A program made the translations under genes and the position numbers. Positions 303 to 36,961 of a stretch of 56,562 nucleotides of DNA are shown piece after piece. The DNA is from an uncultured Nitrospirales bacterium (GTDB lineage Bacteria > UBA10199 > JADGCS01). Where the stretch lies: NCBI GenBank assembly GCA_964526915.1, contig CAZGMS010000101.1, positions 1-56,562 on the forward strand, written 5' to 3'. Each line of letters begins with the position of its first letter. Position 1 is the stretch's first letter. The notes below the pieces were generated by a model. The model made no database searches. It had not been told where the DNA came from and was given only the letters and a program-made list of their open reading frames with translations.

Positions 303-1472
303 ATGAAGAGAAAAAACACCGGAAATTACATTGTGTCAACCGTAGCGGGTGAGACTGTTCGTGCCTTCGTCCCGGACCCTTTGCCACCCCATCCGTTTGT
401 TGTCTGGTCTAATGACCTGATTCAAAAACAGGAAGAAGCGGCGATCGCCTTGGGTCGTCTTGATAGTATGACATCTTTTTTACCTGAGCCATCATTATTT
501 TTATACAGCTATGTCCGGAAAGAGGCAGTTCTCTCCTCACAAATCGAAGGGACTCAATCCTCTTTGTCGGATCTTCTGGCGTTTGAAAATGCTGGGGCTC
601 CGGGACTGCCCGTGGACAGCGATGTTGTTGAAGTCTCAAACTATGTTGCCGCGATGGAACACGGTCTGAAACGGTTGCGTGGAGGATTTCCACTCTGTTT
701 AAGGTTGCTCTGCGAGATTCATGCGATCCTTCTGTCAAAGGGCAGGGGACATGCGAAACAGCCGGGGAGCTTTCGGACTACTCAAAACTGGATCGGTGGA
801 ACTAGGCCGGGCAATGCCACCTATGTTCCTCCTCCTCACCACGTGCTTTCTGATTGTCTCGGAGCCCTTGAAAAATTTTTGCATGATGATCCTGTCAAAA
901 CATCTGTCCTTGAAAAAGCGGCTTTGATTCATGTTCAATTTGAAACGATCCACCCTTTTCTGGATGGGAATGGACGCGTGGGACGCCTGCTCATTGCCTT
1001 GCTCTTGCATTGGCAGGGAGCCCTTAACCAACCACTTTTGTATTTGAGCCTCTATTTTAAAAAAAATCGTCAGGTTTATTACGATCTCTTGCAGAGCGTT
1101 CGTAGCGATGGAGATTGGGAAGCTTGGCTGTCCTTTTTCTTTGAGGGTGTGCGCGAAACAGCAAATCAAGCTGTGGCAACGGCCAAATGCCTCTTGTCAC
1201 TTTATGAAAAAGACAAGCAACGAATTGCCAGCCAAGGTCGGGTAGCCGCTTCTGTTTTACAGGTTCATCATTATTTTCAGGGAGCCCCGTTGAGTTCGCC
1301 CAACATAATAGTTAAAACATTGAAACTCTCTTCCGCGACTGTGAACAAAGCCTTGGACTATTTGCAAGAGACACAAATTCTGCGTGAGGTGACTGGCAGA
1401 CAGAGGGATCGGTTATTCTCATATCATCGGTATTTGAAAATATTGAACGAAGGGACAGAGGGCGCGAGTTAG
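303..1472 (+). CDS. Fic/DOC family protein (class II Fic with an N-terminal inhibitory helix and a C-terminal winged-helix-like tail)
   Basis: The Fic active-site motif HPFLDGNGRVGR lies at 951..986. The inhibitory motif S-S-Q-I-E-G, fitting (S/T)xxxE(G/N), lies at 534..551. The ORF is 389 aa. Confidence 0.9.
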   Translation: MKRKNTGNYIVSTVAGETVRAFVPDPLPPHPFVVWSNDLIQKQEEAAIALGRLDSMTSFLPEPSLFLYSYVRKEAVLSSQIEGTQSSLSDLLAFENAGAPGLPVDSDVVEVSNYVAAMEHGLKRLRGGFPLCLRLLCEIHAILLSKGRGHAKQPGSFRTTQNWIGGTRPGNATYVPPPHHVLSDCLGALEKFLHDDPVKTSVLEKAALIHVQFETIHPFLDGNGRVGRLLIALLLHWQGALNQPLLYLSLYFKKNRQVYYDLLQSVRSDGDWEAWLSFFFEGVRETANQAVATAKCLLSLYEKDKQRIASQGRVAASVLQVHHYFQGAPLSSPNIIVKTLKLSSATVNKALDYLQETQILREVTGRQRDRLFSYHRYLKILNEGTEGAS

Positions 1473-3468: not shown

Positions 3469-4914
3469 TTACCTGTACCCCGACGTCTGTCGGCGGGCGG
3501 GGTCGGCGAAAAGAGCGTCATCAAAAGTTTGTCGTCGGCTGTTGAGTTTTTCCAACTCTATGGCGATCCTGAATTGCTTTTCGATGTGACTTTTGGCCGC
3601 CGTGAGCAGGGTGTCTTGCCCCCGTTGCAGGTCTTTGAGCGTTTGTCGCAGGGGCACGTCGGGTGAGATACCCACACCCTCAACCAGCGAACCGTCCGCA
3701 AGCACAACGGGCCAATTGGTGTAACAAAAGGGGACCTTGCTGGGAAGTCTGGCACAGGAGTATGTCCCGCCCGCACCAGCGGTTGTCTGACCGATGATCC
3801 TGCCACGCCCTGTCATTTTAAAAGCGGCCGAAAACATGTCACACGCTGAGCGGCAATAGGAATTGGTGAGTAGTACCACGGGGCCGCCGTACATGTAGAG
3901 ATCGGGGTACGTGGTGTAGTTCATGGAGAGACGCAGTTTGGATTTGTTCTGTACAATGCAGTTTCGCGATTTGGGATGGCAGGTTTGCCTGAGCAAGGTT
4001 TGATCTGGCATAAAAAAACTGGCCATGCGGCACACCTCGTCGCCATAGCCGCCGTTTGTATTCCTGAGATCGATGACAATTCCCTTGGTCTGGCGCTGAG
4101 ACAGGCCTCGTAAATGATTCCTGAACTGTGAGGACACAGAAGGTTCCTGGCCCTTTTTGTGTTTGAAACCGGTGACCTTGATGTAACCTACGTTTCCGGG
4201 AAGCGTTGTGGACTGGACAAGCGGGCGGCTTGATTCCCATCGCCAAAAGGAACGCTCGGTCAGTTCAACCCCTGCGGGGACGCTGAGAAAGATGTCTTTT
4301 TCTTTTCGCTGTTGGTCAAAAAAAGTGAACGTCTGTGGCGTGTACGTTTTTTTACTTGTGCCCGGAACTGTGGCGAGGAGATCTGTGCTGTACGCCCGGA
4401 TCCATTGAGGTGATCCCATGAGGTGCTTTTGGAAATCGTTGAGCACCTGCGCTACGGGCTGGTGTTGGACCCTGGTCAGTTCAAAACCTTTTCTGATGCC
4501 GGATCGGTAGGCGGGTGAGTTGACGCTGACCTCAGAGACAATGTATTTGTTTTCGATCTCATTGATCACAAAACCGGGATTAAAACGCTCTGGCAGGGTG
4601 GGGTTGATGATCAAACAGTGACTGTCGCGCAATTCCTGCAGAATGTTGGTCAACAATTCGTAGTGTTTTTGATCGGTCGTGTGACTCCGTACCAAGGGGA
4701 TGTACTTTTCCCTGAGGGCGTCCCAGTCCACTCTTTTGAGCCATGTGTAGGCGTAGTTTTGTTCGAGTGTGTTGAGAAGGAATTTGACATCGTGCAGGCG
4801 GGCCTTGTCTGTGAGGGCCTGTGCGGGTGACACGCACAACAGACAGAAAAAAATAAAAGACAGAGAAAATGAAACGAAGCTTGGGTGTCTCACAGTTACG
4901 GACGTGCCTAGCAC
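3469..4914 (-). CDS. S41-family (tail-specific/C-terminal processing-like) serine peptidase, secreted
   Basis: N-terminal signal-like segment FVSFSLSFIFFCLLCVSPAQA. S41-like blocks DLRNTNGGYGDE and LTNSYCRSACDMFSAAFK. The start codon is uncertain (GTG at 4914 or an internal GTG). Confidence 0.7.
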   Translation of the reverse strand: MLGTSVTVRHPSFVSFSLSFIFFCLLCVSPAQALTDKARLHDVKFLLNTLEQNYAYTWLKRVDWDALREKYIPLVRSHTTDQKHYELLTNILQELRDSHCLIINPTLPERFNPGFVINEIENKYIVSEVSVNSPAYRSGIRKGFELTRVQHQPVAQVLNDFQKHLMGSPQWIRAYSTDLLATVPGTSKKTYTPQTFTFFDQQRKEKDIFLSVPAGVELTERSFWRWESSRPLVQSTTLPGNVGYIKVTGFKHKKGQEPSVSSQFRNHLRGLSQRQTKGIVIDLRNTNGGYGDEVCRMASFFMPDQTLLRQTCHPKSRNCIVQNKSKLRLSMNYTTYPDLYMYGGPVVLLTNSYCRSACDMFSAAFKMTGRGRIIGQTTAGAGGTYSCARLPSKVPFCYTNWPVVLADGSLVEGVGISPDVPLRQTLKDLQRGQDTLLTAAKSHIEKQFRIAIELEKLNSRRQTFDDALFADPARRQTSGYR

Positions 4915-4952
4915 ATCATTTTATGTCTGTCGAGAGAGACAAGCTCAAAGCC

Positions 4953-6557
4953 TCAACATTTGGTGCACAGACGAGGAATGACCAATGTGTACAGGAAAAT
5001 CAAAATTAAAACAAAGGGCGAAATCTGTTGTTTGGGATTGTTGTTAATGTTCTGTGCCAGTGAGTACCCACAGCCCCCGTTCGTCCCTCTTAATTCATAC
5101 GATCCACCGGGCGCGGTGACCAAGAGTGAAACGCGGTATACATCATGGGCACCCTTGGTTGTGTAGAGTTCGTTCACTCCGTTATTGTTCAAGTCCCCCA
5201 GCAGAAAGTCTCCTCCAATCTGGTCATTCGCACTTTCTCCGAGGACGGTGAGCAGGGTGGTGTCCGAAGTTATCGAAACGGAACTTGGCCAAGTCATTCT
5301 GCCAAAGATAACAAAGACGGCACCCGTCAGGTTGTCTCCGTAATCGGGTGCCCCCACAATGATGTCTTCAATCCCGTCACCGGTAACATCACCGATCGTT
5401 AACATCTTCCCAAAACCATCGAGCACCTCGCCATCTGTGATCATGACATCTGCATCCTCCTCAGAGAGGTCTGTGCCCATTTCGATGGGGCCAAAAAAGA
5501 GACTGATGGTGCCATCAGACGATGCCAAGGCCAGATCATCTTCATCGTCGTGATTGATATCGCCCAGAGCGGCGGCTTGATAAAGGTCATCGCCAATGAT
5601 GGCATCAATGTTGGCCTCATCAATATCAATCTCCTCTTCGAAGTCAGTCTCGCCCGACAAGAGGAAGCCGTGTTGACTCATGTTGGCCTCTTGAGGGGCA
5701 TCATGTCGTTGCAGATTGGCGTTAAGGGATTTGTGATCCGGTCCCAGAAAAAGGTCATCGGGCACGGCCGAGATGTAATTGTTTACAAATACAGAGGTGG
5801 CACAGTAACCATCACTGCCAGACACCGTTCCAATCAAATCAAAATGGGAATCATAAATATAAATCTCACCTTGGTCATCCTCTCCCGCATCCGGTGCCAC
5901 AACAAAAATCTCATCCACATCGTCCCCGTTGATGTCGCCTGTGGCCGCATAGGTGCCCAGATGATCGTTTTCCTCAGCCCCCAAAACGACTTCAAATTCG
6001 TCCAGACTATCCTCTGTGCTCAAATCAATATCGCCGGACAATGAATCAAGGGGTGTTTTTGAGAAATAGACCTTTCCCCGCCCATCGTTGGCGCTGGGGG
6101 TTCCGATCACGAGTGTGCCCTCTTTGGTGATGGCCAGGGCATAGCCCAAGTCTTCATCTGCCACGTCGCTTTGTACCATCCTGATCTCGGCGCTGTTATA
6201 GCTGAGGATGATGTCATCTTCATTTCGGGTTTCGTATATCCCTGTCCCATTGTGAATCATGACCAAGGGCTGATCCAGGGTTGCCCCCAACGTATCGAGT
6301 GCGATCACATGGACGGTCACCTCACTGCTGGCACTTTCGTTGTTGATATCTGTGACAGTCAGTTTTGCCACGACATCACCTTGGCTGTAATACGTCGTGA
6401 GTGTTGGGGCTTGCGCAGTAGAATCCGAAAAGGTGGCATAGCCTGATTCGATGGACCAGCTGTAGATAAGGTCCTCTCCTGCTGAGTCGGTGCCATCAAG
6501 GGCGACTTTGCTGTTGATGACAACCGTCTGGTCGGGTCCCGCATTGGCGACGGGTGA
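4953..6557 (-). CDS. PKD domain plus FG-GAP/VCBS-type repeat segment with a C-terminal hydrophobic anchor; an in-frame continuation of the upstream gene after a TGA
   Basis: Codons right after the TGA at 6558-6560 read SPVANAGPDQTVVINSKVALDGTDS...YSWSIESG...AKLTVTDINNES, which is PKD-like. Repeats such as GDINGDDVDEIFVVAPDAG and GDVTGDGIEDIIVGAPDYG follow. The C-terminus is GGCGYS...ISPFVLILIFLYTLVIPRL. No signal peptide or RBS of its own is present, and the GTG start suggested by the ORF track falls inside the PKD domain. Confidence 0.6.
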   Translation of the reverse strand, partial: SPVANAGPDQTVVINSKVALDGTDSAGEDLIYSWSIESGYATFSDSTAQAPTLTTYYSQGDVVAKLTVTDINNESASSEVTVHVIALDTLGATLDQPLVMIHNGTGIYETRNEDDIILSYNSAEIRMVQSDVADEDLGYALAITKEGTLVIGTPSANDGRGKVYFSKTPLDSLSGDIDLSTEDSLDEFEVVLGAEENDHLGTYAATGDINGDDVDEIFVVAPDAGEDDQGEIYIYDSHFDLIGTVSGSDGYCATSVFVNNYISAVPDDLFLGPDHKSLNANLQRHDAPQEANMSQHGFLLSGETDFEEEIDIDEANIDAIIGDDLYQAAALGDINHDDEDDLALASSDGTISLFFGPIEMGTDLSEEDADVMITDGEVLDGFGKMLTIGDVTGDGIEDIIVGAPDYGDNLTGAVFVIFGRMTWPSSVSITSDTTLLTVLGESANDQIGGDFLLGDLNNNGVNELYTTKGAHDVYRVSLLVTAPGGSYELRGTNGGCGYSLAQNINNNPKQQISPFVLILIFLYTLVIPRLCTKC

Positions 6558-9500
6558 TCACGTTGCGGAGGCCGCTGACAGCCTGACCACCACATCATCA
6601 ACGGCAAGGTCATCGTAATCAGGATCCGAGCTTGTTGCCGCGTGTTGGATGAACACACTTGTTTCGGCGGGAATATTTTCGGCGGTTGTCACCGTCACGG
6701 TTTGGGGAACATTCCAGTTTGTGGTTGTCCATACGAGCGAAGAGGGGTTTGTCTGCACGATATCATCCGGCAGGATGGTGATGGTAACGTTATTTGCGGG
6801 TTTGGTGTCGAGGACCAGGGTGTAGGTGTCTTCTGTGTCAGTGGCTACGGACGTGGTGTCATCTGTCTCCGTGAGGGACACACCGGCGGAATCATTGTCG
6901 GTGATGTTCGTGGTGATGTTCTCAACGGGCACTGTGGTGTAGGTGGGGTCTGCTGTTTGAACGACTGCCGTGATGGTGCTTTCGTGATCGCCTTCCACGC
7001 TGTCATCGTTTACAGCCGCTACCGTGACAGTTTGAACCGTGTTCCAGTTGACCGGAGTGAACGTGAGTGTAATGCTTGTGCTGGTGCTCGCTGTTTTTGT
7101 GGCTGACGACAATGTCAATTGGTTTGCATCGAAAGTGAATTTGATTTTGACGTTAACTTCAGGTTTAGAATCGAGGACAACCGTGTAGGTATCGGTTTCC
7201 GCTCCTTCTGTGACAGCGGTGGTGCCGCCTGTCTCGGTGACGGTGATTCCCCAATCACGCGTGATTGTGTAATTCACATCATCTGATTCATTCAGAGACA
7301 GGTCTTGTGTGGTGAATACGAAATTGTTGCTTCCAGCAACTATCGGAAAATCGTCTATGGTCCAGGTGGTCAACGCATTATTGGCAACCCATTCAATGCC
7401 ATCAACCCACAGACTTGTGTAGGCAGGCTTGGTCCCCGTCAGCGTCGGCGTGGCAGAACTCACAGCAGAACCATTGGGTGGCGATGTGATGGTGGGTGGA
7501 CCTGGTTCCTCCTCGTCATCAACAACCAACACCAGTGGCGTGACTGTTCGGGATGTGCTGTGATTCGCGTTGGTGACTGCGGCGGAAACCCTCGCACCGG
7601 AAGGGATGGCGGCATGGATAGACCAGTTCCCATCATCATCGGATGTGCCAGAGGCCACGTAAAGGCCGTTGGCATAAAGATCGATATCACCATTGGCAAT
7701 GGCCGTGCCCTCTACAAACGAGGTCGTGGCGGTGAGGGCTGTGATGGTTGGGTCGGCAATGGCTTCGTTGCCATCGCCATTACGCGCGGAGTTGAAAGTG
7801 GTATCAGTTTCTGTCACACAATCATTGCCACGAAATTCATTGAAATCGCCCGCCGTGTTTTCTACCAAAAAACAAGCGGTGCCTTCGGCCGTGACAATGA
7901 TATTGGGCGCATCATCTGTGATGCCATTGATCGTGTTGGAGGCTGACCCGTTGGCCACGTATATCCCGTTGCCTGCATTTGTCCTGATGAGTGGCCCCTC
8001 GCCTCCATAAGCAAAACCAATGTAGTTGTTTAAAATCGTGGTGTCCTCGACATTGTCGAGATAAATTCCAGACACGCCATTGCTGGCGATGATGTTTTTC
8101 GCGGTGACATCGTCAGAGGATCCAATGAGGGTTTGATCAGCCTGCCAGACCTGAATGCCATCACCGCCATTGCCCAACGCCGTGGTGCCGTCAGCGGCCA
8201 AACCAACAATGTTTGCCTGAACAGAGTTGCCTGTAGTCGTTGCTCCTTCCAGTCGAATTCCGTCATCAGTGTTCCCCGAGATCACGTTTCCATAACCGGG
8301 AAGGCCGATGAAGTTGTCTTGTGCGCCGTTGACGATGTAAACACCGATGGTCCCGTTTGGAATGGCCGCTGTTCCCTCTGCGTTCGTGCCGATGTAGTTA
8401 TTCTCGATGAAATTGCCTGACCCGCCTCCCCAACCGGAATTGATATCGATACCCGCCAATGTGTTTCCCGATATGATATTTCGAGCCGCATCGACTGTTC
8501 CGCCGATCAGATTGTCCGAACTCGCAAGAATCCATATGCCCTGTGTCCCGTTTGGAATGGCCACAGTTCCGGTGGGATTGGTGCCAATATAGTTACCCTG
8601 CACTGTCGAACTGCCACCTTGAAGCAAAACTCCAGCACCGCCGTTTCCAGAAATTACGTTGCCAGCGCCCGCTACGGTGCCGCCGAGCAATATCGAGTTG
8701 TTGGTTCTAATTCCCTCAGAACCGTTTGGTAGCGCGGCTGATCCATCCGCTGTGACGCCAAGATAATTGCCTTGTACAATAGCATTGATTGATGTGCCGT
8801 CATTGGCAATCCCGCAACTCCCGTTACCGGAGATCACGTTGCCTTCACCAGCGGCAGAACCCCCGATCGTGATGTTTTCAGTGTCTCCCTCTGTCAAAAT
8901 CCCCCATTCTGTGTTACCCAGATCATCAAAACCGGTAGCCGTTCCAATATAATTCCCCTTGATCGTGATGTCTGAAGACGCCCCGATGCGCATCCCCGCA
9001 CCGTTATTGACAATGATGTTTCTTTGATTGGCCGCCGCACCTCCGATGATGATGTGCGAACTTCCGATGCTACCGAGACCTGCTGTTCCATTGCCTGCTG
9101 TCAATCCGATCACGTTATTATAAATGGTGACGTTTTCTGTGTATTCATTGTTGATCCCGCTGAACGTACAATTATCCATCGTGTTGCCGTCGCGATCCCC
9201 CACACCCCCAACCATCATGTCTGTGCTGGAACCACCAACAATAAAACACTGAAACCCGCCAGAAATGGCAATGCCCTTCATGACATTGCCACTGCCCGAA
9301 GAAAAAATCACCGTGCCGTAAAAATCGGGGTCGCCCACAATCGTGATGTCGGGGCCGGGTTGCACATCGTTGGCCGTTGTGCCATCAAGAATGACCGAGC
9401 CAGGTTCCGGCAAAGTGGTGAGCAGTGTGATCTCACCGCCACTGACAGCGACATCAAAATTGATTGTATCCAAACCGGGAAGGGCATTGGCATCGATGAT

Positions 9501-9957: not shown

Positions 9958-12900
9958 ATGCAAATACTGCCAGCCTATACCATTCGCCTTGTTCCGGGCA
10001 ACACCATTGGTTTGTCAGAAAAAGGATTTCAAGGACCAGCCACTGGCCCTGTCGATGCTTATTCGCCCGGTACTCACTCTTTGGGATTGCTTTCCCTCCC
10101 TACGGCCGCAACAGCCGCAAGAGCGATCCCTCGTTTCAAGGCCCCTTTTGACACTGACTCCTCATTGCCTGTCAGGCAACCCTTGTCGTTGGCAAAATCA
10201 CTGGATGTAAAACTGTCACAAGAACACCGCATCCAGTTCAGCCCTACAGATGTGGTCAATTATTTTCATGATCCCCTGATCACCTGGCTCGAAAGACATC
10301 ACATTGAAATGCGCACGCGTCAGGTCACTACCGCAGAGCCTTGTCCCAGTGAGTTTTTGACGTTGCTTCGTCAGAAAGGACGCACACACGAGGAAACAGT
10401 TTTGCAGAAAATGCAAAGTGAAAAACAGGTCGTGATGGTGTCACGCGATCAGGATTTCACCTTGGAGAGACAAAAAACGCTCATCGCCATGGAAATGGGG
10501 GCGGAGGTCATATATCAACCCGCCCTGTCTCGTGCGAGTGATCCTTTTGTGGGACACGTGGATTTTTTGTTTAAAGTCAAAAATTCCGCAGGAGTCAAAA
10601 CCCGTATCAACGGACGCGACTGTGATTGGCATTATGTGCCCTGTGAGGTAAAACTCTCAAAGCGAGCCAAACCCGAACACCTCCTGCAACTTAGTCTGTA
10701 CGCCCATATGCTGGAGGACATGCAGGACTACCTGCCCCCATCCCTGTACGTCATCAATGGCAAGGGAGAAACCGAAGCCTACCGCACACAGGATTATTTT
10801 GATCTGAGCATGCATTATCGCGAGGCCTTTTTGACCCAGCAGGAATTGTTTGATGCGAATGTGGTGCCTTTGCCACACAGATTGCCCTTGGGTGATTGGC
10901 ACAGTTATGTTGATGAATACCTGACCAAATGTGATGATCTCCGCAGCCTTCCGGGCATGATGGAGACGCAGGCTGTGCATCTCAACAACGCGGGGATTCG
11001 CACCATCACTGAACTGTCTGCTAGTCCCCTCAAGACTGTTCCTCAAATGCCTGAACCTGTTTTTGCTAAATATCAATTGCTGGCCCGGCTCATCGTGCAG
11101 GCCAAGACCTCCGGTACCATTCAGTTTCAACTCACGGATGATCTTTCTGATCAAAAAAGAGGCCTGCAAACGCTCCCACCGTCTGCCGGTAAAAAAAACG
11201 ATTTGTTTTTGATCCTGCAAGCCTCCCCGTTGGTTCAGGGTGACCTCTGTTTCAACATGGGAGTTACGTCGTATGGCACAGACACCAAAGACGGCGTTGC
11301 ACAGAGAGGGCAGTTGTATCAAAGCTGGGCCAATGATGAAACAGATGAAGAACGGAATTTTTCCAACCTGATGGACAATATCCGGCGCCGCTTGTCTCAT
11401 GATCGTCACATGCACGTGTATGTGTATGGTTCCTCCACAACAGAAAGACTCAGAAAGCTGGCACAAAAACACGGCAAACACGAGGCTCTGCTGGACAGTT
11501 TCTTTGAGCGTGGCGTGTTTGTGGATTTGGAAAAAATCTTTAAGGACAGTTTTTTGACCAGCAGTGTCAACACCGAGTTGGTCGCTCTTGCGCCTCTGTT
11601 GGGTGCCAACGGGCTTTCCTCTGAATACCGTGTTGATGATGCTGTCATGCTGGCTGGTCATTATTTTGAAACCGAAGATGCTGAAATCAAGCAAAACGCA
11701 CTGAACCGTTTGGGTATTAAAACCAAAGCTGACACTGCCTTGCTTTTTCGAATGTATCAGTTTTTGAGTTCTGCCCAGACCCAACAGAAAGCCAAATATC
11801 AGCCTCGCACCCGGCCACTGGGCCCACGACCACCTTTCGCCAAGACCTTTGATGGCGCTCACACGACTGTGGACCTTAAAGACACCACGCTGTTGATCCA
11901 AAGATTATGGGGCCGATTCGGATCCAGCATCGCGGCCCACCAGCGCGGGGAGAGAACCCCTGACGCTGAGCGGGGAAGAGTGGCTCTGCTCCTCACGCAA
12001 CTTTTGCAGTACCACATTCGTGAAAAGAGGGCCTGGTTTGGACAAATTCAGGGGCGAATAGAAAAGACACCGTTTGAACTGGTGGCCGACACGGTCGCGT
12101 TGGGAGATATGCAATTGTTGCCGTCAGCCCCCACAGAGGTCAAACATGGCAAGGTTTTTCGGTTCACATTCCCTGCGCAGGAAACCAAGGTCAAGCAAGG
12201 CCTGTCTTGTCTTGTGTCTCAGAATCTTCGTGTGGGGGTCAAGATTGAACACATCGATTTCAAACAGGGAGAGGTTTCCCTCCGCATCTCCGACAACATG
12301 CTCACCCGTTTGGGGGGCACCATGCCCGAAACCCTCGCTTTGCTCCCGTACGATTATGTTTCCCCGCAAGCCATGCACGATGCCATTTACCGAATCGCGC
12401 AGAGACTGGATCAAAAAGAACCCCGATTGCCAAGCCTGACGGGTGCTCTGCTTTTCAGAATGCCCCCGCACATTACGGAGTGGGATGAGCAACACGGCAC
12501 GGTGGGCGAAAAGCGGGCTGGGAGCCTGATCAAGGGCAATGTGTATGACCCCGATGAAACCGGAATAATCGAAGGCGTCAATGCGATCAGTCATATGCGC
12601 GGGAGTGTGCTCTGTGTGCAAGGTATCCCCGCTTCGGGCAAAACCACCCTCGCGGCGCGTGCCATCCTCGAACAAATCAAGGCAGGCAAGCGCACCGCCA
12701 TTTCGGGCCTCACCCACAGGGGCATGAATAATCTGGCCGTGCGGGTAGCTGAGTTGGCCAAAGAAGAAGGGCTCCAACTCAATCTGGTCAAGGTGGATGA
12801 TGGGCAGGAACAGCGCGATGAGCGCCTGAGCGCCTTGGCCGGTGACAAGATCAAAATTCAGTTTTACCGCACGGGAGAGACCTTGGCCAAGCATGTTACG

Positions 12901-13872
12901 GAATATGATGTGGTGGTCGCCAGTCCCTGGGTGATGTCACGGCCGGAATTTTCCCACCAGTTTTCGCACTTGTTCATTGATGAGGCAGGTCAGTTGTCAC
13001 TTGCCAACGCTCTGGCCATGACACACTGCGCCGCCAACCTGATCCTGTTGGGTGACCAGAGACAAAACAGACAACCCTTGCAGGCAAGACATCCGGGGCT
13101 TTCCGGGTTATCGGTGCTGGACTACATGCTTTCTGGCTTGGGCACTGATGTCCCGGTGGTCCCCGACGACTTTGGACTCTTCTTGGGTCAGTCTTTCCGC
13201 ATGGCCCCGCCTATTGCTGAATTTGCCAGCCAGGAATTTTACGATGGCAGACTACAGACAGCCGAAGTGGCCACGCGGCGCCAACTGATCGCGCCCGAAC
13301 GCCCTGTCCCTGTTGAGGTTCAGGGCAAGAGATTTATGTTTCCCCCCGCGGGCATAGTCGCCTTACCCATTACGGGCCCAATACATAGCCGACAAAATCC
13401 TGAAGAGGCGCTTGCCGTGCAGGCCATTTTGGAATCACTCAAACACTTTCATGTTGAGCAAAGAAACGGTGCGGGTGATGTGGTGGAAAGTGCTCCCCTT
13501 GATTCCGCGCGGGTCTTTGTGATGGCGCCTTTCACGGCACAGGTGAACGCCTTGGCCCGTGAGTTGCCCCCAGATGTGCTGGTGAGTACGGTGGATGGTT
13601 TGCAGGGGCGCGAAAACAGTGTGGTCCTGTATTCTCTGGGAGTCAGTGACCCTGATTCGCAACACGGGGTGACATTTGCGATGGACCCGCGGCGCATCAA
13701 CACAGCGCTCACGCGGGCGCAGGTGCTTTTTATTTTACTCGCCAACCCGCATTTGCTGGACAGACGCCCCGGCACCATCGCGGAGATGAAAAACCTCAAT
13801 CGACTGGCGATGCTGTTGCGCCGGTACGCACCGGAGCCGGCATCAGGGCCAGATAGAGATTCAGCCCGTTAA
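9958..13872 (+). CDS. RecB-like PD-(D/E)XK nuclease (TM0106-like N-terminal region) fused to an SF1 DNA2/Upf1-type helicase (AAA_11/AAA_12-like)
   Basis: Nuclease motif GHVDFLF (D at 10561) then CEVKLSK (E at 10645, K at 10651). Walker A GIPASGKTT at 12622..12648. Walker B FIDEAGQ around 12979. Also GDQRQ, STVDGLQGRE and TRAQVLFILL. AAGGA lies 9 nt upstream of ATG 9958. Confidence 0.85.
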   Translation: MQILPAYTIRLVPGNTIGLSEKGFQGPATGPVDAYSPGTHSLGLLSLPTAATAARAIPRFKAPFDTDSSLPVRQPLSLAKSLDVKLSQEHRIQFSPTDVVNYFHDPLITWLERHHIEMRTRQVTTAEPCPSEFLTLLRQKGRTHEETVLQKMQSEKQVVMVSRDQDFTLERQKTLIAMEMGAEVIYQPALSRASDPFVGHVDFLFKVKNSAGVKTRINGRDCDWHYVPCEVKLSKRAKPEHLLQLSLYAHMLEDMQDYLPPSLYVINGKGETEAYRTQDYFDLSMHYREAFLTQQELFDANVVPLPHRLPLGDWHSYVDEYLTKCDDLRSLPGMMETQAVHLNNAGIRTITELSASPLKTVPQMPEPVFAKYQLLARLIVQAKTSGTIQFQLTDDLSDQKRGLQTLPPSAGKKNDLFLILQASPLVQGDLCFNMGVTSYGTDTKDGVAQRGQLYQSWANDETDEERNFSNLMDNIRRRLSHDRHMHVYVYGSSTTERLRKLAQKHGKHEALLDSFFERGVFVDLEKIFKDSFLTSSVNTELVALAPLLGANGLSSEYRVDDAVMLAGHYFETEDAEIKQNALNRLGIKTKADTALLFRMYQFLSSAQTQQKAKYQPRTRPLGPRPPFAKTFDGAHTTVDLKDTTLLIQRLWGRFGSSIAAHQRGERTPDAERGRVALLLTQLLQYHIREKRAWFGQIQGRIEKTPFELVADTVALGDMQLLPSAPTEVKHGKVFRFTFPAQETKVKQGLSCLVSQNLRVGVKIEHIDFKQGEVSLRISDNMLTRLGGTMPETLALLPYDYVSPQAMHDAIYRIAQRLDQKEPRLPSLTGALLFRMPPHITEWDEQHGTVGEKRAGSLIKGNVYDPDETGIIEGVNAISHMRGSVLCVQGIPASGKTTLAARAILEQIKAGKRTAISGLTHRGMNNLAVRVAELAKEEGLQLNLVKVDDGQEQRDERLSALAGDKIKIQFYRTGETLAKHVTEYDVVVASPWVMSRPEFSHQFSHLFIDEAGQLSLANALAMTHCAANLILLGDQRQNRQPLQARHPGLSGLSVLDYMLSGLGTDVPVVPDDFGLFLGQSFRMAPPIAEFASQEFYDGRLQTAEVATRRQLIAPERPVPVEVQGKRFMFPPAGIVALPITGPIHSRQNPEEALAVQAILESLKHFHVEQRNGAGDVVESAPLDSARVFVMAPFTAQVNALARELPPDVLVSTVDGLQGRENSVVLYSLGVSDPDSQHGVTFAMDPRRINTALTRAQVLFILLANPHLLDRRPGTIAEMKNLNRLAMLLRRYAPEPASGPDRDSAR

Positions 13873-16800
13873 GACCCGACCCCGCACATAGGCCATACCC
13901 CATTGACGATAATCAATGCCTAAAAACGCGAGGATTCTTTTCAAATAGGCCACGTCACCCATATGATGCCGATACATATTCATTCTTAAAAATGATCCCA
14001 GGAGTTTTGACAGAGCTGTTTTCAAGGGAAACCTGATGACCGTACCGTGATTGGCATAATACACTTCGAGCTGATTTTGAATGGCTAACAATCTATCCAT
14101 GGGTTTCGTCAAAGCTTGTATGTTGTCTAATGACAAAACATAATCCAGGGCTTCATCAAGGTTTTGTGGTTTGCCTTCTCCTTCAAAAATATCTGTAAAG
14201 CGTGACCTCAGAAGTTTTTTGAGCTCAGTGCCGGCATTTCGTGACGGGTTGATGAGCGCTCTGAATATGAATTTGAATAAATCTAATTCTTCTTTTGTGA
14301 TGGTTGTGATTTGAGCGTAATCCACACGAACCAGATTTCCATTGGCCAGATCAACAGGCCAGTTCCCCTGATGCCCATCAGGATCAAACACCAATCTGCC
14401 TTCGTCAAGCGCTTTAATTTCTGCATCCACAATTTGGGCCGCAATGGCCACTCGCAATGTGCGGGGTCTGATTTTATCCAGCTTTGTATGATCAACAAAC
14501 GCATACACAGAGGCCTGTTTTCGATACTCTGGTTGAATCATTGTTTGGATTTCAAGATCTGGTGCCACCGCAGTCACTCTGAGTCCTGTCTGTGGACTGA
14601 TTTCAGCGTGCTGATACGCCCTTAAGCCCAAGGCGGCCTTTGATCTTTCCTGCTCCAAGTCCAATTCCACACCACCGGGTTTTAACGTATCATAGGCCTG
14701 TTGCATCAAATTCTCGATGAGCATGCCATAACGAAGAACCTGCGGTGGCCTATCTGGGGCCTTTAATTGTTCGATCACTTTTAACCACACCTTATGTTCG
14801 TTTTCGATCAAGCCAGACACATGTTCTTTTTGAATGCGCACACACACTCTGCGCACTTCACCTGTGCTCAGACGCACATAGACTTCGACCGCATAATTGA
14901 GAGATCCCGAGCCAGCCAGTTTCCCCACGGCCAGTATCTTTATATAATTGTCACCAAAAATCTGCTTGAGCTGTCTTATGATGATCTCTCTGGAGGGTGG
15001 CAGGGCAAAATCAAACGAACTCATGAGATCATCTCTGAGTGTTCCTGTCACCAGACCACTGGTCACCAGATTCTGAGCCGCCTTTGCCCCCAGAGGCCCG
15101 CTGGTTTCAAGCAGTCGTCTGAAAGACGAGTGTCCGGTTGTGGGATCATAATTTGCCAGAGCCAGGGCAATAAGGATTTTTCGCTCGCCGGCAGGCAGGA
15201 CATTCATGTAAGTATCAAAAATTTCACTCAAGGCAGGGTCCTCATACGCTCCATCCATGATGATGTTTTTGACAGCATCGTAAACAAATGTGCCCTGCAA
15301 GGTTTTCAGCTCATCACCTAAAATGACCTGTAGCGTCATTGCCTGAAACAAGGCCCCATTCTGCTGATACAATGCCTTGAATCGAATAATCTGGTCTTGT
15401 GAATCTTCCTGGTCTTGTTTGTTTTGATATTTTTGTAAGTGTGGCACATGAGGAGAGACACCGATCAAATAGCAGATTAAATCAAGACGCTCCTGTTTGG
15501 TGGTGATTCCTTGAGCCAGAAAATCCGGTGCGTCGAGAGCATACAAAGCTCTCATCTGCACCCAGTTATTTTCATTCAATCTGAGTTCAGCCAAAAGCCG
15601 TGTTTCATTTTCTCCTGGCAAGAGTGCGGCTTCAACAAAGTCCAAAACAGAATAACTGGCTGGCGTTGGCTCGGCAAATTGCTCTTGCAGAAGCGCACGC
15701 ACATCGCGGACAATCTTTCGCACTTCCTGAGGAGTGGGCAATTGCGCAGGATACGCCTTGAGGTCTTGTTGGTGTTGTCGAAAACCCGGCAAGTGCTCAA
15801 TCTGCCATTTGGCAATGTCTGTTTTGAAACCCTCATACCTGCAAAGCCTGATGAGGCCCGGATATAAAAATAGTTCTCCGACCTCCTGTTCAAAATCTCT
15901 GAATTGCCACAAATACCCCAGCACATCCTGTATTTTGTCTGGTAATAGGCCCATTTTGTTTTTCACTCTAAACAAAAGAAGCCTGGCAACGAGTGCTCGG
16001 GGATACAGAGTCACACACCTTAAGTCCGAAAAGAAATCGTCCAGAGTTCTTGCAAAACACCTGAGTAACAACTCATCACTGGCTGATCCTTTGGAAGAAT
16101 ACTTTCCGGATTTTTCATTGATCAATTCTTCAACCCCAGCAACATACTCTGCATAAACAGACAGATCCGAAATGGTTCTTTTGCCGGCACTGACAAACGA
16201 AAAAGAAGACGAGACTCCCGCTTCAATACAACGGAGAGATGAATATGTTGTTTCCAAGTGAGCTCTGTCAAAGGCTTTCCAAAATTCATAAGAAGCCTTT
16301 GTGACTGAACCATGTCGCATGAGAAACCATTGAAACGATTTTTTATAAAACCCTGCTATGGCATCACGACAGTCAGCTTGAACATCTGGGTCTAAAAAGA
16401 ATGCGGCACGCGCTAAATCCCAGGGCCTTTCCAGGGAAAGTCGCTTCAAAGCAAGCTCTGTCAATTGACCGGGTTGAGGATCGTATTTCGTTGCCTTTCT
16501 TTGCATTTGCGCATGGGTTTTCTCTGCTAATGTCCAATGGTCGATGGGGATAGCCATAAATATATCATAAATGGCATTCAGTTTATCTTCTTCGATTTGC
16601 CTGAGTCTCTGCCTGACCTGTGCGGGAATGCTGCTTTCTTCATTGTTGGCGACTAACATTTCAACGATGCTGTTCAATTCCGTTTCTTCCTGCGTCCACA
16701 AAGCAGGTTCATTGGTGTACACATGAGCTGTTTGTCTAATATCTAATTGTCCCTTGAACACCCCCCAGAATTTCTCATTGTTGGCCAGTTGGATCATATC

Positions 16801-19266
16801 AGAAAACATAGCCTCGCGGTTCAGGCCCTGTTTGGCCGCATCAGGCATCATCGCTGGGATCATGAGATAGACCAGATGTTTGATTTGCTCGCGTGACACC
16901 CCTGCGTCACCGGCCGCCTTAAATATGAGCCATACCAGTCTATCCACCCCTTGTGCCCTATTGGCATATTGTGAGTAATGAATAGAATACAACATCCCCA
17001 TTTCATCTAATTGTTCCTGAAATCCATGCAATGCGTTTAACCACGATTCTTTGTTGAGAGAATTCAGGTTTTCAATCAACTCTGCTGTGGCTTTGTCGAG
17101 CAAGCTTGTCTCACATTCTTTAAGATCTATTTCTGCACAATATTTCGCACCTCTGATAAGTTCTGCTAAATTTTTTAAAAAATGAGGGTTATCATGATAA
17201 TAACCATGTATTTTGACAGCAGAACTACAATGTATTTCTACAGTTTTTTTGATGACATTTTGGATGAGTGTTCTTGTTTGAGTCGGAAGGCATTTAGAAA
17301 AATAACTAATTAAGGTGGGGAGACAATCGCGTATGAAATGGAAAATTTCGCAATATTGTAGTTCCCTGTTGCCACCGTCCCTGTGTTGAAGACATTCTTC
17401 AAAACTTGTTGCTAAATGATCGGAAATCTTGTTCAAGATTTGTTCCAGCACGGCTGGAGAAGCCTTTCGATAGCCATAGGTTTTTATGAGCCCGGCTAAC
17501 CGAACACTGTCTTTTTCTGATAACAGAAAATTCAAATGATGATCTTTTCTTATTTTTTTGGCGCGTTTTGGGGCTTGAATGAGCATATCATGGGCAATGC
17601 GCAACCTTAAACCACCCGATTCAAGACTATCTACAAAGAGACCGTGTTTTGATTCTAAGCAACCCACCGGTGGTTTTCGGTAGCCCTGATCGATAAAGGC
17701 ATCAAGCGCTGGTCCTTGCTCAAAATACAATTTTGCAAGCCTAATTCCTGCTTCACATCCCGCAATCTTTCCTTTTAGTTCTTTAATCATGTGTTGGTGA
17801 AAGCTGGTATTCCCACAAGTGGCGGAAGCACTTTCAAGCTCTTGGAGGCTCTCTTTATTTTCGTCTCTTCTCTTCAAAAAGTCTATGAGATCCCCATTCT
17901 CAATGTCTACCTCTCGTGCTTCCAATGATAGGTATGCTTCTAACTGAGTTGTGTTTTGAGGTACAAAATCTGGTCCCAGAATCGCGTTTTTGGCTCTTTC
18001 AAATTCCTCATGAAGATTTTGGGCCAGTTGTAATTTAACAAGAATAAACCACTCTTCCCATTTACTGTGACTGTAAGGCAACCAGGATTTCATTTCTGCG
18101 AGTCGCAAAGCATAAACATCTGCAAAGCTCTTCACCCCACGTTCAAAATCCATTTGCGTGCTTGCCGCGATCTTGCGATACATTTCATCGGCCAAACCAG
18201 TCACCTCTAATAAACGCTCAATTCTTGCCCGAAATACAGCTTCGAGAGCACCGTACTTAAACAAAACAGATTTGACGTTCCCCAGCACGATCTGTGATCT
18301 TGCGCCATCATCAAGGCGGTGTTCTGTATTACCGCCTTGGAGCCTCACCAAAGCGGCCACAGCACCCTCCAAAACGGATATTCTTGTTGTTAATTTTGTG
18401 TGTGTCTGCGACAGACAGTCCCCTGATCCTTTTCTTAATCTGGTTAACACATCAATTCCCGCTTGTGGATTTTTATCTTTACGGATCAAACGCCTCACCA
18501 ACGCTTTGGCATCGGCCTCATTTTCAACAGACCGTTGTAAAAGAAAGCTCCCCAATTCACCTCTATTCGCGTTGATTTTTTCTTGAAGTTGAGACAACCC
18601 GTGTTCCAGTTCATGTCCCAATATAAAACCGAGTTCCTCATCATTTTCTATCAGTTCTAACAACCCTAAGGTGATTCCCACAATTTTTTCTGATCCGTAT
18701 GTTGACTGGACAAAACAAGCGTTAGGTGACCTGTCTCTTAAAATCACAAAATAAACGGGGCCCGTGCCGTCTTCGGGAATCAACATGTCTTCCAACAGAA
18801 TGCAGGCTCTATTGATAAAACTTGTTAAAGCTGACTGCATGGGTTCAGGAAAAATAGTGACATCAAGTGCCTGTGCTCCGATTCTCTGCAATAATACGGC
18901 AATTTTCTCATCACCATGACCGACTTGCACCTTGTGCCCAGGTGTTGGCATTGCCATATGCGCGGCAGAGACCATGACCGTATCTGCTGATGGCAACGTG
19001 TGTAAATACTGAACACGTGAGTGATCCAAAAGTGATGGGGGTTTTTGGGCTTCTACCCCTTCCTGCTGTCGATAATCACCAAGGCGTCTTGCCCAACAGG
19101 GAGTTGCCTGCAAAGATTCTATTTGATCATGGCCAGACAACAAAGGGGATCCCGCCACGTCTGTCACGTCAGACCTTGATAAGGGGACATCTTGTCCCCA
19201 GGCTGAGCCTAGAGTTGGGGAACCAGTAACACCAGAAGGGATACAATATGAAAGGATACCAGCCAT
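13861..19266 (-). CDS. Giant (~1,800 aa) multidomain protein: N-terminal M48-like Zn-metalloprotease module, long helical middle, C-terminal UbiB/ABC1-like atypical kinase module
   Basis: HELEH lies at 18601..18615, flanked by SPNACF upstream and ENEADAKAL downstream. The C-terminal ~420 aa (13864..15120) contain GPLGAKAAQNL, AGSGSLNYAVEVYV..VCVRIQKEH, ELDLEQERS, and FDPDGHQGNWPVD..VRVDY (DPDGHQGN at 14362..14385). The start is ambiguous: the first ATG at 19362 sits inside a repeat, and I prefer ATG 19266 (MAGILSY). Neither has a clear RBS. Confidence 0.75.
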   Translation of the reverse strand: MAGILSYCIPSGVTGSPTLGSAWGQDVPLSRSDVTDVAGSPLLSGHDQIESLQATPCWARRLGDYRQQEGVEAQKPPSLLDHSRVQYLHTLPSADTVMVSAAHMAMPTPGHKVQVGHGDEKIAVLLQRIGAQALDVTIFPEPMQSALTSFINRACILLEDMLIPEDGTGPVYFVILRDRSPNACFVQSTYGSEKIVGITLGLLELIENDEELGFILGHELEHGLSQLQEKINANRGELGSFLLQRSVENEADAKALVRRLIRKDKNPQAGIDVLTRLRKGSGDCLSQTHTKLTTRISVLEGAVAALVRLQGGNTEHRLDDGARSQIVLGNVKSVLFKYGALEAVFRARIERLLEVTGLADEMYRKIAASTQMDFERGVKSFADVYALRLAEMKSWLPYSHSKWEEWFILVKLQLAQNLHEEFERAKNAILGPDFVPQNTTQLEAYLSLEAREVDIENGDLIDFLKRRDENKESLQELESASATCGNTSFHQHMIKELKGKIAGCEAGIRLAKLYFEQGPALDAFIDQGYRKPPVGCLESKHGLFVDSLESGGLRLRIAHDMLIQAPKRAKKIRKDHHLNFLLSEKDSVRLAGLIKTYGYRKASPAVLEQILNKISDHLATSFEECLQHRDGGNRELQYCEIFHFIRDCLPTLISYFSKCLPTQTRTLIQNVIKKTVEIHCSSAVKIHGYYHDNPHFLKNLAELIRGAKYCAEIDLKECETSLLDKATAELIENLNSLNKESWLNALHGFQEQLDEMGMLYSIHYSQYANRAQGVDRLVWLIFKAAGDAGVSREQIKHLVYLMIPAMMPDAAKQGLNREAMFSDMIQLANNEKFWGVFKGQLDIRQTAHVYTNEPALWTQEETELNSIVEMLVANNEESSIPAQVRQRLRQIEEDKLNAIYDIFMAIPIDHWTLAEKTHAQMQRKATKYDPQPGQLTELALKRLSLERPWDLARAAFFLDPDVQADCRDAIAGFYKKSFQWFLMRHGSVTKASYEFWKAFDRAHLETTYSSLRCIEAGVSSSFSFVSAGKRTISDLSVYAEYVAGVEELINEKSGKYSSKGSASDELLLRCFARTLDDFFSDLRCVTLYPRALVARLLLFRVKNKMGLLPDKIQDVLGYLWQFRDFEQEVGELFLYPGLIRLCRYEGFKTDIAKWQIEHLPGFRQHQQDLKAYPAQLPTPQEVRKIVRDVRALLQEQFAEPTPASYSVLDFVEAALLPGENETRLLAELRLNENNWVQMRALYALDAPDFLAQGITTKQERLDLICYLIGVSPHVPHLQKYQNKQDQEDSQDQIIRFKALYQQNGALFQAMTLQVILGDELKTLQGTFVYDAVKNIIMDGAYEDPALSEIFDTYMNVLPAGERKILIALALANYDPTTGHSSFRRLLETSGPLGAKAAQNLVTSGLVTGTLRDDLMSSFDFALPPSREIIIRQLKQIFGDNYIKILAVGKLAGSGSLNYAVEVYVRLSTGEVRRVCVRIQKEHVSGLIENEHKVWLKVIEQLKAPDRPPQVLRYGMLIENLMQQAYDTLKPGGVELDLEQERSKAALGLRAYQHAEISPQTGLRVTAVAPDLEIQTMIQPEYRKQASVYAFVDHTKLDKIRPRTLRVAIAAQIVDAEIKALDEGRLVFDPDGHQGNWPVDLANGNLVRVDYAQITTITKEELDLFKFIFRALINPSRNAGTELKKLLRSRFTDIFEGEGKPQNLDEALDYVLSLDNIQALTKPMDRLLAIQNQLEVYYANHGTVIRFPLKTALSKLLGSFLRMNMYRHHMGDVAYLKRILAFLGIDYRQWGMAYVRGRVLTG

Positions 19267-19358
19267 GTTTGTTTGCCTATTATCGGCAATCACACACCCA
19301 TGGTTGCGCAACTGAGATAAATAACGTCCACACTTGTGGACAGAAAACATGTATGAAA

Positions 19359-19459
19359 ACATGTATGACGGAGGTCATTGGGCAAATAATAACATGTATG
19401 ACGGAGGTCATTGGGTAGTGTCGGCAAAGAGTATAACATGTATGACGGAGGTCATTGGG
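19359..19459 (+). repeat. Three direct copies of ACATGTATGACGGAGGTCATTGGG (REP-like hairpin motif), at 19359-19382, 19392-19415 and 19436-19459
   Basis: Read directly. Copies 2 and 3 extend identically (TAGTGTCGGCAAAGAG). The core ATGAC-GGAG-GTCAT is a 5-bp stem with a 4-nt loop. Confidence 0.9.
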
Positions 19460-19569: not shown

Positions 19570-20355
19570 TCAAATATCCTTGAGCTGATCCATCATCTTC
19601 ATCATTTCTTCGTTGCGGTATGTTTTTTCGATCATGCCCATGAACTTTTTGGCCTCGGGGTTGTTGGGATCGATCTCCAGGACCTTCTGATAGTACCGAT
19701 AGGCCCCATCCTGTTCCCCTTTGTGTAAAAACAATTTACCCAATAGACTGTATACGTAGACCAGCTCCTCTTTTGTGACCTCACTGCTGGTGATCCTGAC
19801 GGCTCGTTCCAGATAGGATAGGGCGTTGAGGGTGTCCCCCTTCTCGTAGGCCAACATCCCCAACAATTTGAGCAACCAGTAACTTTTTGATGATTTAGCC
19901 GCCCTTTTTAAAATAGGGAGGGCCTCATCTTTTTTCCCGCTGTTGTAGAGGGCACGACCATAGTTTTCGTCGAATGTTTTGTAAAAACGGTGCTCCTTGT
20001 TTGTCTTCTTAAAACCCTTCTCTGCCATCTGGTAAAACTCCAGCGCACTGTAATATGATCCTTGAAGTTCCGTCAGAGTGGCCAGCATGAAGACGACGAT
20101 GGGTGACTCACAGCCTGAGTTGAAAGACTGATACAGAGATTTATGCGCGGTCTCGTAATCTCCCGAGTGATAGGCCTCCATACCCTGTTTGACCTGAGCA
20201 TCCCACTTGGATGACGCGTATTTTGTAGATTCATAGGCCTGATAATCCTCGTCAGCATCATCAGCAAACGATGTGGTTGACAGAACTGCCAACAGCACAA
20301 AGAGACAACAAAACAACCCCAACTTCGAAATGTGAAATTTATACAATATTAACAT
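19570..20355 (-). CDS. Secreted TPR-repeat protein
   Basis: Signal-like N-terminus LFCCLFVLLAVLSTTSFA. Repeated TPR-like A..Y......G.Y..A helices. The start could be ATG 20355 or TTG 20370. Confidence 0.65.
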   Translation of the reverse strand: MLILYKFHISKLGLFCCLFVLLAVLSTTSFADDADEDYQAYESTKYASSKWDAQVKQGMEAYHSGDYETAHKSLYQSFNSGCESPIVVFMLATLTELQGSYYSALEFYQMAEKGFKKTNKEHRFYKTFDENYGRALYNSGKKDEALPILKRAAKSSKSYWLLKLLGMLAYEKGDTLNALSYLERAVRITSSEVTKEELVYVYSLLGKLFLHKGEQDGAYRYYQKVLEIDPNNPEAKKFMGMIEKTYRNEEMMKMMDQLKDI

Positions 20356-20421
20356 AATGTTATCATACAATGTTTGGCACTACAATCAAGGGGAATCCTG
20401 CTGATGTTTCATGTTGCGTTA

Positions 20422-36843: not shown

Positions 36844-36961
36844 CGTGGATCGTGGATCGTCGATCGTTGATCGTTGATCGTTGATCGTTGATCGTGGATC
36901 GTGGATCGTGGATCGTGGATCGATAAATTATACGATCCACGATTGACGATTAACGATTAAC
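36844..36961. repeat. Eleven tandem GATC-containing heptamers (CGTGGAT/CGTTGAT/CGTCGAT, 36844-36920) followed by four inverted units (36933-36961)
   Basis: Read directly. CGTGGATCG (36914-36922) and CGATCCACG (36933-36941) form a perfect 9-bp inverted repeat around ATAAATTATA. The array fills the xerC-hslV intergenic region and overlaps the xerC stop. Confidence 0.9.
36927..36932 (-). promoter_or_regulatory. Perfect TATAAT (-10-like) hexamer on the hslV coding strand, at the centre of the heptamer palindrome
   Basis: Plus-strand ATTATA equals TATAAT on the minus strand, 88 nt upstream of the hslV ATG. No convincing -35 was found. Confidence 0.3.

Follow-up and report, generated by a model that had tools for sequence, protein, structure and literature searches.

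A family of giant proteins from uncultured bacteria predicted to join an M48-type protease to a UbiB-like kinase-fold domain

The 56,562-nucleotide contig CAZGMS010000101.1 (assembly GCA_964526915.1), which comes from an uncultured Nitrospirales bacterium and is referred to here, at its full length, as the window, carries on its minus strand an uninterrupted open reading frame (ORF) of 1833 codons plus a stop codon (13861..19362). We are highly confident that the product of this gene combines, in one protein, an M48-type zinc metalloprotease, an alpha-helical solenoid, a conserved helical module and a domain related to the UbiB/ABC1 atypical kinases. That a single giant polypeptide fuses the two enzyme modules had been proposed in the initial annotation of the window; the intact ORF and the same layout in hundreds of cluster representatives of related proteins bear this out. 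When this architecture is taken jointly with the proposal that members of the family are two-enzyme proteins that are exported or act as effectors, we put the chances of the whole at about even.

The protease domain occupies residues ~165-345 (18328..18870, minus strand, as for all features of the gene given below). Pfam Peptidase_M48 (PF01435) matched residues 198-254 of the window protein with E=1.9e-8 and 34.8 bits against a cut-off of 20.3. An N-terminal family profile built from 43 relatives and searched against PDB sequences retrieved 3C37, a Geobacter protein named 'Peptidase, M48 family' (E=1.2e-13), E. coli BepA (E~2e-9) and an HtpX fragment (E=4e-5), and the alignments to PDB M48 entries match up the HExxH, E..AD and C-terminal H....R motifs. 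A Foldseek search with the N-terminal model gave BepA (6ait, E=5e-4) as the top fold match and 3c37 with a template modelling (TM) score on target of 0.58 over ~240 columns at probability 1.00.

The zinc-binding and catalytic motif HELEH (H250, E251, H254; 18601..18615), in which H, E and H are invariant in the trimmed N-terminal alignment, has SPNACF (18712..18729) 33 residues upstream. It is followed after 25 residues by ENEAD (E280/E282, D284; 18511..18525), which pairs with the E..AD of 3C37 and BepA and, on the basis of the alignment, is predicted to provide the third zinc ligand, a glutamate. The counterpart of the M48 C-terminal 'THP....R' motif is HTKLTTR (H321...R327; 18382..18402), which was aligned to 'STHPLTSER' of 3C37 and whose H and R are invariant. 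The M48 assignment and the order NA...HExxH...ExxAD, both read by eye in the initial annotation, were thus confirmed by the Pfam score above cut-off, the family profile and the fold match, the ENEAD spacing being 25 residues. With all catalytic motifs of the module intact, zinc-dependent proteolysis is predicted.

Judged by profile alignments and modelled fold, the protease is of the soluble BepA/3C37 kind and not of the membrane HtpX/Ste24 kind. The earlier remark that both families are normally small and membrane-associated therefore needs qualifying, since the closest proteases are soluble and periplasmic. The window protein shares with BepA and 3C37 the HExxH, downstream E..AD and C-terminal H....R motifs, and an all-helical repeat region comes after the protease in both the window protein and BepA. 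BepA itself has a Sec signal peptide, and so do most relatives of the window protein. The differences are that the window copy has no signal peptide, that its helical region spans ~780 residues and has a kinase-like domain at its end, and that its HExxH motif and third-ligand glutamate are only 25 residues apart, where the alignments to BepA and 3C37 contain a long gap inserted by HMMER.

The region following the protease (residues 346-1126; 15985..18327) is poorly conserved in sequence and was modelled as an all-alpha, solenoid-like spacer. The AlphaFold model of residues 120-1130, made from an 18-sequence alignment, had a mean predicted local distance difference test score (pLDDT) of 75.7, with ~80-94 in the protease part and 50-90 in the spacer, where every secondary structure element is helical. 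Its predicted TM score (pTM) was 0.55, and the inter-domain confidence is low. Foldseek matched the spacer only to generic alpha-solenoids of the HEAT/ARM/TPR-like type (SKI3, FANCI, condensin, importins), and Pfam found no tetratricopeptide repeat (TPR) in the window protein. The next segment, residues 1127-1412 (15127..15984), is a helical module specific to the family, conserved in the family alignments and confidently modelled; nearly all matches of the profile search described below cover it, and it always accompanies the kinase-like domain. Between the two enzyme modules the initial annotation had seen about 1,100 residues of helical sequence devoid of motifs: the helical character holds, while the length and featurelessness do not, the low-conservation part being ~780 residues long and giving way to a conserved module of ~290 residues.

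The C-terminal domain (residues 1413-1808; 13939..15126) has an atypical kinase fold of the UbiB/ABC1 type. The AlphaFold model of residues 1127-1833 was of high quality (pLDDT 88.7, pTM 0.88), and its top 12 Foldseek matches all belong to the UbiB family (7cyr, 4ped, 5i35, 7udp/q, 5yjz-5yk2, 7cz2 and 7cy2, that is, MSMEG_1954, COQ8A/ADCK3 and Rv3197), with E from 3e-7 to 4e-5 and TM on target of 0.45-0.60. Ordinary protein kinases such as CDC7 and Eph come lower in the list, at ~1e-3. With UbiB and COQ8A the domain shares a fold resembling that of protein kinases and, N-terminal to it, a helical domain bearing KxGQ (4PED, 5I35 and 7UDP/7UDQ; TM on target 0.55-0.60). With the mycobacterial ABC1 proteins Rv3197 and MSMEG_1954, several of which were crystallised with ADP or AMPPNP, it shares a bacterial soluble UbiB fold, and the MSMEG_1954 structure 7cyr is the top match (E=3e-7). 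Those two differ in being ~400-residue single-domain cytoplasmic proteins with neither protease nor solenoid, and are only 13-15% identical to the window protein.

Comparison of the family alignment with genuine E. coli UbiB by hhalign gave a probability of 88.5% and E=2.7e-6 over 340 columns (UbiB residues 54-422). As can be seen from the pairing, the motifs fall in register along the whole domain. In the KxGQ region, family GPFGIKAGQFLRTS is paired with UbiB GPVWIKFGQMLSTR; the window protein has KAAQ within GPLGAKAAQ (K1427, Q1430; 15073..15084), which pairs with IKFGQ and has Ala in place of Gly. The nucleotide-binding loop GSGSLN (14896..14913; family GSGSINYVV) stands in place of the Ala-rich loop ASASIAQ (UbiB ASASIAQVH). 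VCVRIQK (14827..14847; family vvVRi.R) is paired with UbiB VVIKVIR and contains R1509 (14836..14838), aligned with the beta3 lysine that binds ATP in UbiB (VVIKVIRPD). ELDLEQE (14647..14667; family ELDLsiE) corresponds to UbiB ELNLLRE and supplies equivalents of the ExD motif and the alphaC glutamate (E1566, D1568, E1572). The catalytic loop DPDGHQGN (D1660, D1662, N1667; 14362..14385) pairs with HADMHPGN (family FDPDGHPGNW, UbiB FHADMHPGNI). Finally, RVDYAQ (14311..14328; family RIDYAQ) pairs with the IDCG of UbiB GIDCGI and contains D1681 (14320..14322), the metal-binding equivalent of the DFG aspartate. All the motifs listed in the initial annotation for the last ~420 residues are present in the order given there, and the four that it named pair with those of E. 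coli UbiB.

Frequencies at these positions were counted in ~140 aligned family domains. Q1430 is invariant (135/135), K1427 is Lys in 84% and Arg in 13%, and the third position of the KxGQ motif is Gly in 63% and Ala in 28%. For ExD, E1566 is kept in 94% and D1568 in 74%, and the alphaC-type E1572 in 83%; the catalytic loop is more uniform (D1660 97%, D1662 97%, N1667 99%), and D1681 is conserved in 143/143 members (100%). Because the KxGQ glutamine, the ExD and alphaC glutamates, the catalytic-loop Asp and Asn and the DFG-type Asp are all conserved, the machinery for Mg-nucleotide chemistry looks intact. In COQ8, the water molecule attacking ATP is positioned by the glutamine of KxGQ (bioRxiv 10.1101/149823). 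The arginine found at the beta3 position could reflect a change in how the nucleotide is handled, or the binding of some other anionic ligand.

In the window protein, the domain has diverged too far in sequence for the Pfam ABC1 profile to detect it. NCBIfam did not recognise ABC1/UbiB there either. When that protein and two family alignments were searched against PDB sequences with phmmer and hmmsearch, M48 entries and noise came up, but not a single chain of the UbiB family. Of the two Pfam profiles that had been suggested as a check, Peptidase_M48 was recovered in the window protein (34.8 bits vs 20.3), whereas ABC1 was missed there and found in 17 of 28 relatives (best E=2.7e-9); Peptidase_M48 matched 23 of the same 28. 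In one of the relatives, P0002, the C-terminal domain scored 23.8 bits against the ABC1 cut-off of 22.9. Four independent lines, namely the ABC1 matches of relatives, the modelled fold, the alignment to UbiB and the pairing of motifs, identify the C-terminal module as a divergent UbiB/ABC1 domain.

The fold and motif similarity to UbiB and COQ8 (in E. coli UbiB the alignment shows counterparts of the KxGQ motif, of ExD with the alphaC glutamate, of the catalytic loop, which is of the HxDxHPGN type, and of the DFG-type Asp) might suggest a canonical UbiB orthologue that serves quinone biosynthesis and has picked up extra domains. We regard this as very improbable and rejected it. No transmembrane helix was found in the window protein (the highest 19-residue Kyte-Doolittle mean is 1.25, while the segment that anchors E. 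coli UbiB at its C-terminus reaches 1.78), so that this anchor has no counterpart here. No ubi or men quinone-biosynthesis genes are adjacent in any locus examined (the window and the loci of relatives). Arg replaces the beta3 Lys in the window protein as well as in 74% of the family, and in the window protein a Gly/Ser-rich GSGS stands where UbiB has its Ala-rich loop. Pfam ABC1 and NCBIfam do not match that protein, in which the domain forms one chain with a protease and a solenoid. Moreover, most relatives appear to be exported by a crude signal-peptide test, and the membrane would then separate them from the side where quinones are made.

No more than two relatives, P0002 with 1954 aa and P0003 with 1614 aa, came out of a word-indexed homologue search; each has the two end modules and a clear signal peptide. 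The extent of the family was revealed by an exhaustive search with a profile of the C-terminal 707 residues. With a limit of E<=1e-3 this search retrieved 610 cluster representatives (clusters at 50% identity), of which 112 also reach E<=1e-30. Their length is mostly 1,600-1,950 aa, the C-terminal domain being located at ~1000-1700. In nearly all full-length members the HExxH motif falls at ~110-170, and DPDGHxGNW is close to the C-terminal end. Both domains are also present in more distant members of 2,300-2,700 aa (e.g., P0131). The closest relatives, P0014 (1695 aa) and P0010 (2635 aa), are 46% identical to the window protein in the C-terminal module, while pairwise identity to other relatives is only 22-31%. 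The fusion family is large and uncharacterised, and most of its members share the layout of the window protein.

The initial annotation knew of no described family with this fusion, and we found none either: full-text literature searches returned no paper describing an M48-UbiB fusion, and the database names in the family are only 'M48 family metalloprotease' (including P0010, which is MFH0800699.1) and 'hypothetical protein'. Seven relatives (P0002, P0004-P0007, P0013 and P0045) share a conserved C-terminal extension of ~250 residues (L002 ~11700..12376; e.g., '...YIKGVD...GGGPKIA...GPP...DLSQNPYY...'), and very long extra N-terminal regions occur in P0010 (residues 1-940, with hydrophobic stretches) and P0067 (residues 1-1500); none of these has a Pfam match. 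In particular, Pfam scans of the extra N- and C-terminal regions of longer relatives detected no secretion or sorting domains.

The two heads are not equally conserved. In P0026, P0036, P0049, P0051, P0064 and P0069 the HExxH motif is degenerate (HELER, HALER, QELER, QALER, QELEH or SELER; for example, in the context GQALERG), so that the protease looks dead, and the kinase-like catalytic loop and DFG-type Asp are kept. Since these six relatives lost HExxH yet keep the kinase-like site, the kinase-like head appears to be more indispensable than the protease head.

The contig that encodes P0002 (L003, 1..15306) is filled over its whole 15 kb by four tandem family paralogues. The second of them is split by a frameshift near 3478-3493 into an M48-bearing ORF (782 aa) and an ABC1-bearing ORF (1179 aa). 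This copy shows that the M48 and ABC1 halves can appear as separate ORFs, as would be the case if the giant gene resulted from misassembly or a sequencing error that joined two unrelated genes. When aligned to the full-length profile, however, the two pieces of the split copy cover positions 7-775 and 776-1697 and so match it from end to end; the copy is therefore a broken fusion and not an ancestor; in addition, the continuous architecture is found in >100 independent cluster representatives from NCBI, JGI, ENA and Logan. With the fusion conserved family-wide, we rejected an assembly artefact, the chance of which we consider negligible.

Comparison with the family also bears on the 5' end of the window gene. 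Codons 1-129 (18976..19362) have no coding signal and no counterpart in relatives: the in-frame codon-usage score is <=0 for codons 1-120 and positive from codon 121 on, and the family profile starts aligning to the window protein at ~residue 120. Because both signals begin there, the true start is likely ATG 18975 (M130), with 18957 and 18951 as alternatives, and codons 1-129 are probably an untranslated or regulatory region and not coding. The gene product would then be ~1,700 aa long, or 1,833 aa if the upstream ATG is used. With a start at 18975, HELEH is at residue 121, compared to residue 126 in P0014, the closest relative, and a ~600-bp non-coding gap separates the gene from the upstream TPR gene (19570..20370). 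The GC content of the gene (13861..18975) is 44.4%, vs 49-53% in the flanks (53.1% in the helicase gene on one side and 49.2% on the rpsB side), which may be a sign of horizontal acquisition.

A signal-peptide test was positive in 68 of 102 full-length representatives, and several of the negatives look like mis-called starts. Many of the positives have textbook Sec signals, among them P0002, P0003, P0025, P0032 and P0039. The window protein, P0014 and P0010 have no typical Sec signal and are exceptions in the family. The absence of a signal peptide and transmembrane helices noticed in the initial annotation is thus real for the window copy, and relatives differ from it, about two-thirds of them having Sec-type signals. 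A signal-less copy would either use another export route or act in the cytoplasm of its own producer. The initial annotation had offered two ideas, a secreted effector and a sensor whose protease is controlled by the kinase-like module; the signal peptides of relatives, together with the tandem arrays of paralogues, favour the former.

We propose the following mode of action for exported or effector-like members. The UbiB-like head would still bind and hydrolyse nucleotide, because the phosphoryl-transfer residues are near-invariant. The periplasm contains no ATP; given this and the almost invariant ATP-handling residues, Sec-exported members would act, after delivery, in an ATP-containing compartment of another cell, in the manner of an effector or toxin. 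There, by analogy, the UbiB-like head would work on or at a membrane, because anionic membranes (those with cardiolipin) and phenolic lipids stimulate the ATPase of COQ8/UbiB proteins (bioRxiv 10.1101/149823). The protease head would cut protein targets or process and mature the protein itself, and the solenoid would be a docking scaffold. The traits that we count as effector-like are the tandem paralogues, divergence to 22-31% identity, the 44.4% GC gene, the lack of conserved neighbours and one Bacteriovoracaceae host.

Legionella effector kinases provide a functional analogy only. As is proposed here for the exported members, their kinase-like domain is active only after delivery to the ATP-containing cytosol of another cell, and they are often large, multidomain, fast-evolving and paralogous proteins (PMC9758233), but there is no relationship of sequence or fold to them beyond the kinase superfamily. 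Legionella's own ABC1/UbiB protein is listed as a non-effector housekeeping kinase (PMC9758233).

Several observations weigh against the exported or effector reading of the family. The window protein has no signal peptide with either candidate start, and the signal-peptide census was made with a crude home-made heuristic and not with SignalP. Pfam ABC1 (PF03109) does not match the window protein, whole or as an isolated C-terminal domain, even at E<=10. The beta3 position, which matters for the use of ATP, is Arg in 74% of the family and Lys in 6%. In canonical kinases a change of the beta3 Lys to Arg usually abolishes activity and, by this analogy, the UbiB-like domain might not use ATP at all. 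No secretion-system genes are located near the window gene, whose neighbours are housekeeping genes.

The link of the family to predation is weak as well. Bacteriovoracaceae are a predatory lineage, and one relative is from a Bacteriovoracaceae metagenome-assembled genome (MAG); the other known hosts are an unclassified MAG, a 'Pseudomonadota bacterium' MAG (where the protein is named 'M48 family metalloprotease') and an Elusimicrobiota MAG ('hypothetical protein'). The link is weak because host taxonomy is known for few MAGs only and because the EF-Ts encoded in the window, which is <=71% identical to anything else, has its nearest matches in MAGs labelled 'bacterium' or 'Deltaproteobacteria bacterium'.

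A different role for exported members would be envelope quality control or lipid handling. In this scheme, the protein would be a BepA-like periplasmic protease/chaperone whose solenoid docks on envelope assembly complexes, and the UbiB-like domain would bind or extract an isoprenoid, quinone or phospholipid without ATP, the beta3 Arg recognising the lipid phosphate. No structure matches the N-terminal half better than that of BepA, with its M48 domain and helical repeats, and the match to BepA in sequence is strong as well; the Sec signals of most relatives would allow entry into the periplasm, and the change of Lys to Arg fits an altered ligand chemistry. UbiB proteins, furthermore, bind membranes via the KxGQ domain and respond to lipids (bioRxiv 10.1101/149823). 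However, the Mg-ATP and phosphoryl-transfer residues are 97-100% conserved, which would be difficult to account for if no nucleotide chemistry took place, and the periplasm contains no ATP. An envelope factor with a housekeeping role would not usually form tandem arrays or diverge fast, and the window copy has no signal peptide. The family also appears to be absent from well-studied model bacteria as far as we have seen; here the scan of genome contigs, made with HPGNW[PLF]VD and similarly narrow patterns, yielded only two MAG loci and says little about cultured species. On balance, we hold the envelope role to be rather unlikely.

The sensor idea corresponds to a cytoplasmic, self-regulated protease, in which the UbiB-like module would sense a nucleotide or lipid and switch the M48 domain via the solenoid, at least in the window protein, P0014 and P0010. 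In favour of such a protease, neither a signal peptide nor a transmembrane segment is present in the window protein, a typical signal peptide is likewise absent from its two closest relatives (46% identity), and the chromosomal context is a housekeeping one. Yet we found no precedent for M48 peptidases regulated in this way, and with most of the family exported only a derived branch could fit. The six relatives without HExxH keep the kinase-like active site, and in them the UbiB-like head is not merely a regulator of the protease. We therefore consider a self-regulated protease improbable.

A bolder version of its function would make the family the first extracytoplasmic or translocated branch of UbiB: a soluble enzyme with Arg at the beta3 position and no transmembrane segment, which a solenoid couples permanently to a BepA-type protease and which serves uncultured, possibly predatory bacteria as a two-headed weapon or envelope tool. 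The membrane lipids of another cell (quinones, isoprenoids, cardiolipin) and its proteins may then be the target that is attacked or remodelled. We offer this version tentatively, as possible and open to considerable doubt.

The genes of the window indicate that it is part of the chromosome of a diderm. Downstream of the giant gene, on the other strand, there is a housekeeping block, rpsB-tsf-pyrH-frr-uppS-cdsA-dxr-rseP-tsaB, and then hslVU, a XerC/D-type integrase, MlaC and a TolC-like gene. No neighbouring gene is conserved across the window and seven loci of relatives (L001-L005, L007 and L008). A search with the PADLOC-DB anti-phage defence profiles gave no match for the giant protein.

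The gene that converges on the giant gene (9958..13872, plus strand) encodes a 1304-aa protein with an N-terminal match to Cas4/PD-(D/E)XK-like nucleases and a C-terminal superfamily 1 helicase (AAA_11/AAA_12), and the 3' ends of the two genes overlap by 12 nt. The helicase protein has partial similarity to Mokosh MkoA/MkoC and to DpdJ helicase domains. FG-GAP repeat proteins are encoded near the family gene in two unrelated loci, at 4953..6371 (minus strand) in the window and at 4543..6870 (plus strand) in L001, from the Bacteriovoracaceae MAG, where the FG-GAP gene is directly upstream of the family gene; this may be a coincidence. Genes of extracytoplasmic function (ECF)-type sigma factors, along with small unknown ORFs, are located 3-4 kb upstream of the family gene in L007 (5007..5615) and L008 (6569..7171), and L002 and L007 have in common three divergently oriented unknown ORFs directly upstream of it. 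Elsewhere in the window are genes for a Fic/DOC-domain protein (303..1472, plus strand), a XerC/D-type tyrosine recombinase adjoining hslVU (36957..37865, minus strand) and an IS200-like Y1 transposase (43347..44120, plus strand).

Proteins of the UbiB/ABC1/ADCK group are ancient and linked to disease, and their biochemical role is still debated. To our knowledge, every characterised member has a link to the metabolism of prenyl lipids and is anchored in, or associated with, the cytoplasmic or matrix face of a membrane. Both superfamilies joined in the window protein were known before; what is new, judging by the full-text searches, is their permanent fusion, in which the UbiB-like domains form a divergent clade that has no transmembrane segment and is usually exported. 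Comprising at least 600 clusters, with the beta3 Lys replaced and a hard-wired connection to a BepA-type protease, the family would widen the known range of the UbiB fold, and it would supply naturally soluble UbiB-fold proteins for enzymology and for working out the function of the UbiB domain. The current annotation as 'M48 family metalloprotease' or 'hypothetical protein' misses the kinase-like half. The family suggests that uncultured lineages, 'deltaproteobacterial', Bdellovibrionota-like and others, have a class of giant secreted proteins that is still unexplored and, if its members do form a translocated branch, the chemistry of UbiB would extend beyond the making of a cell's own quinones.

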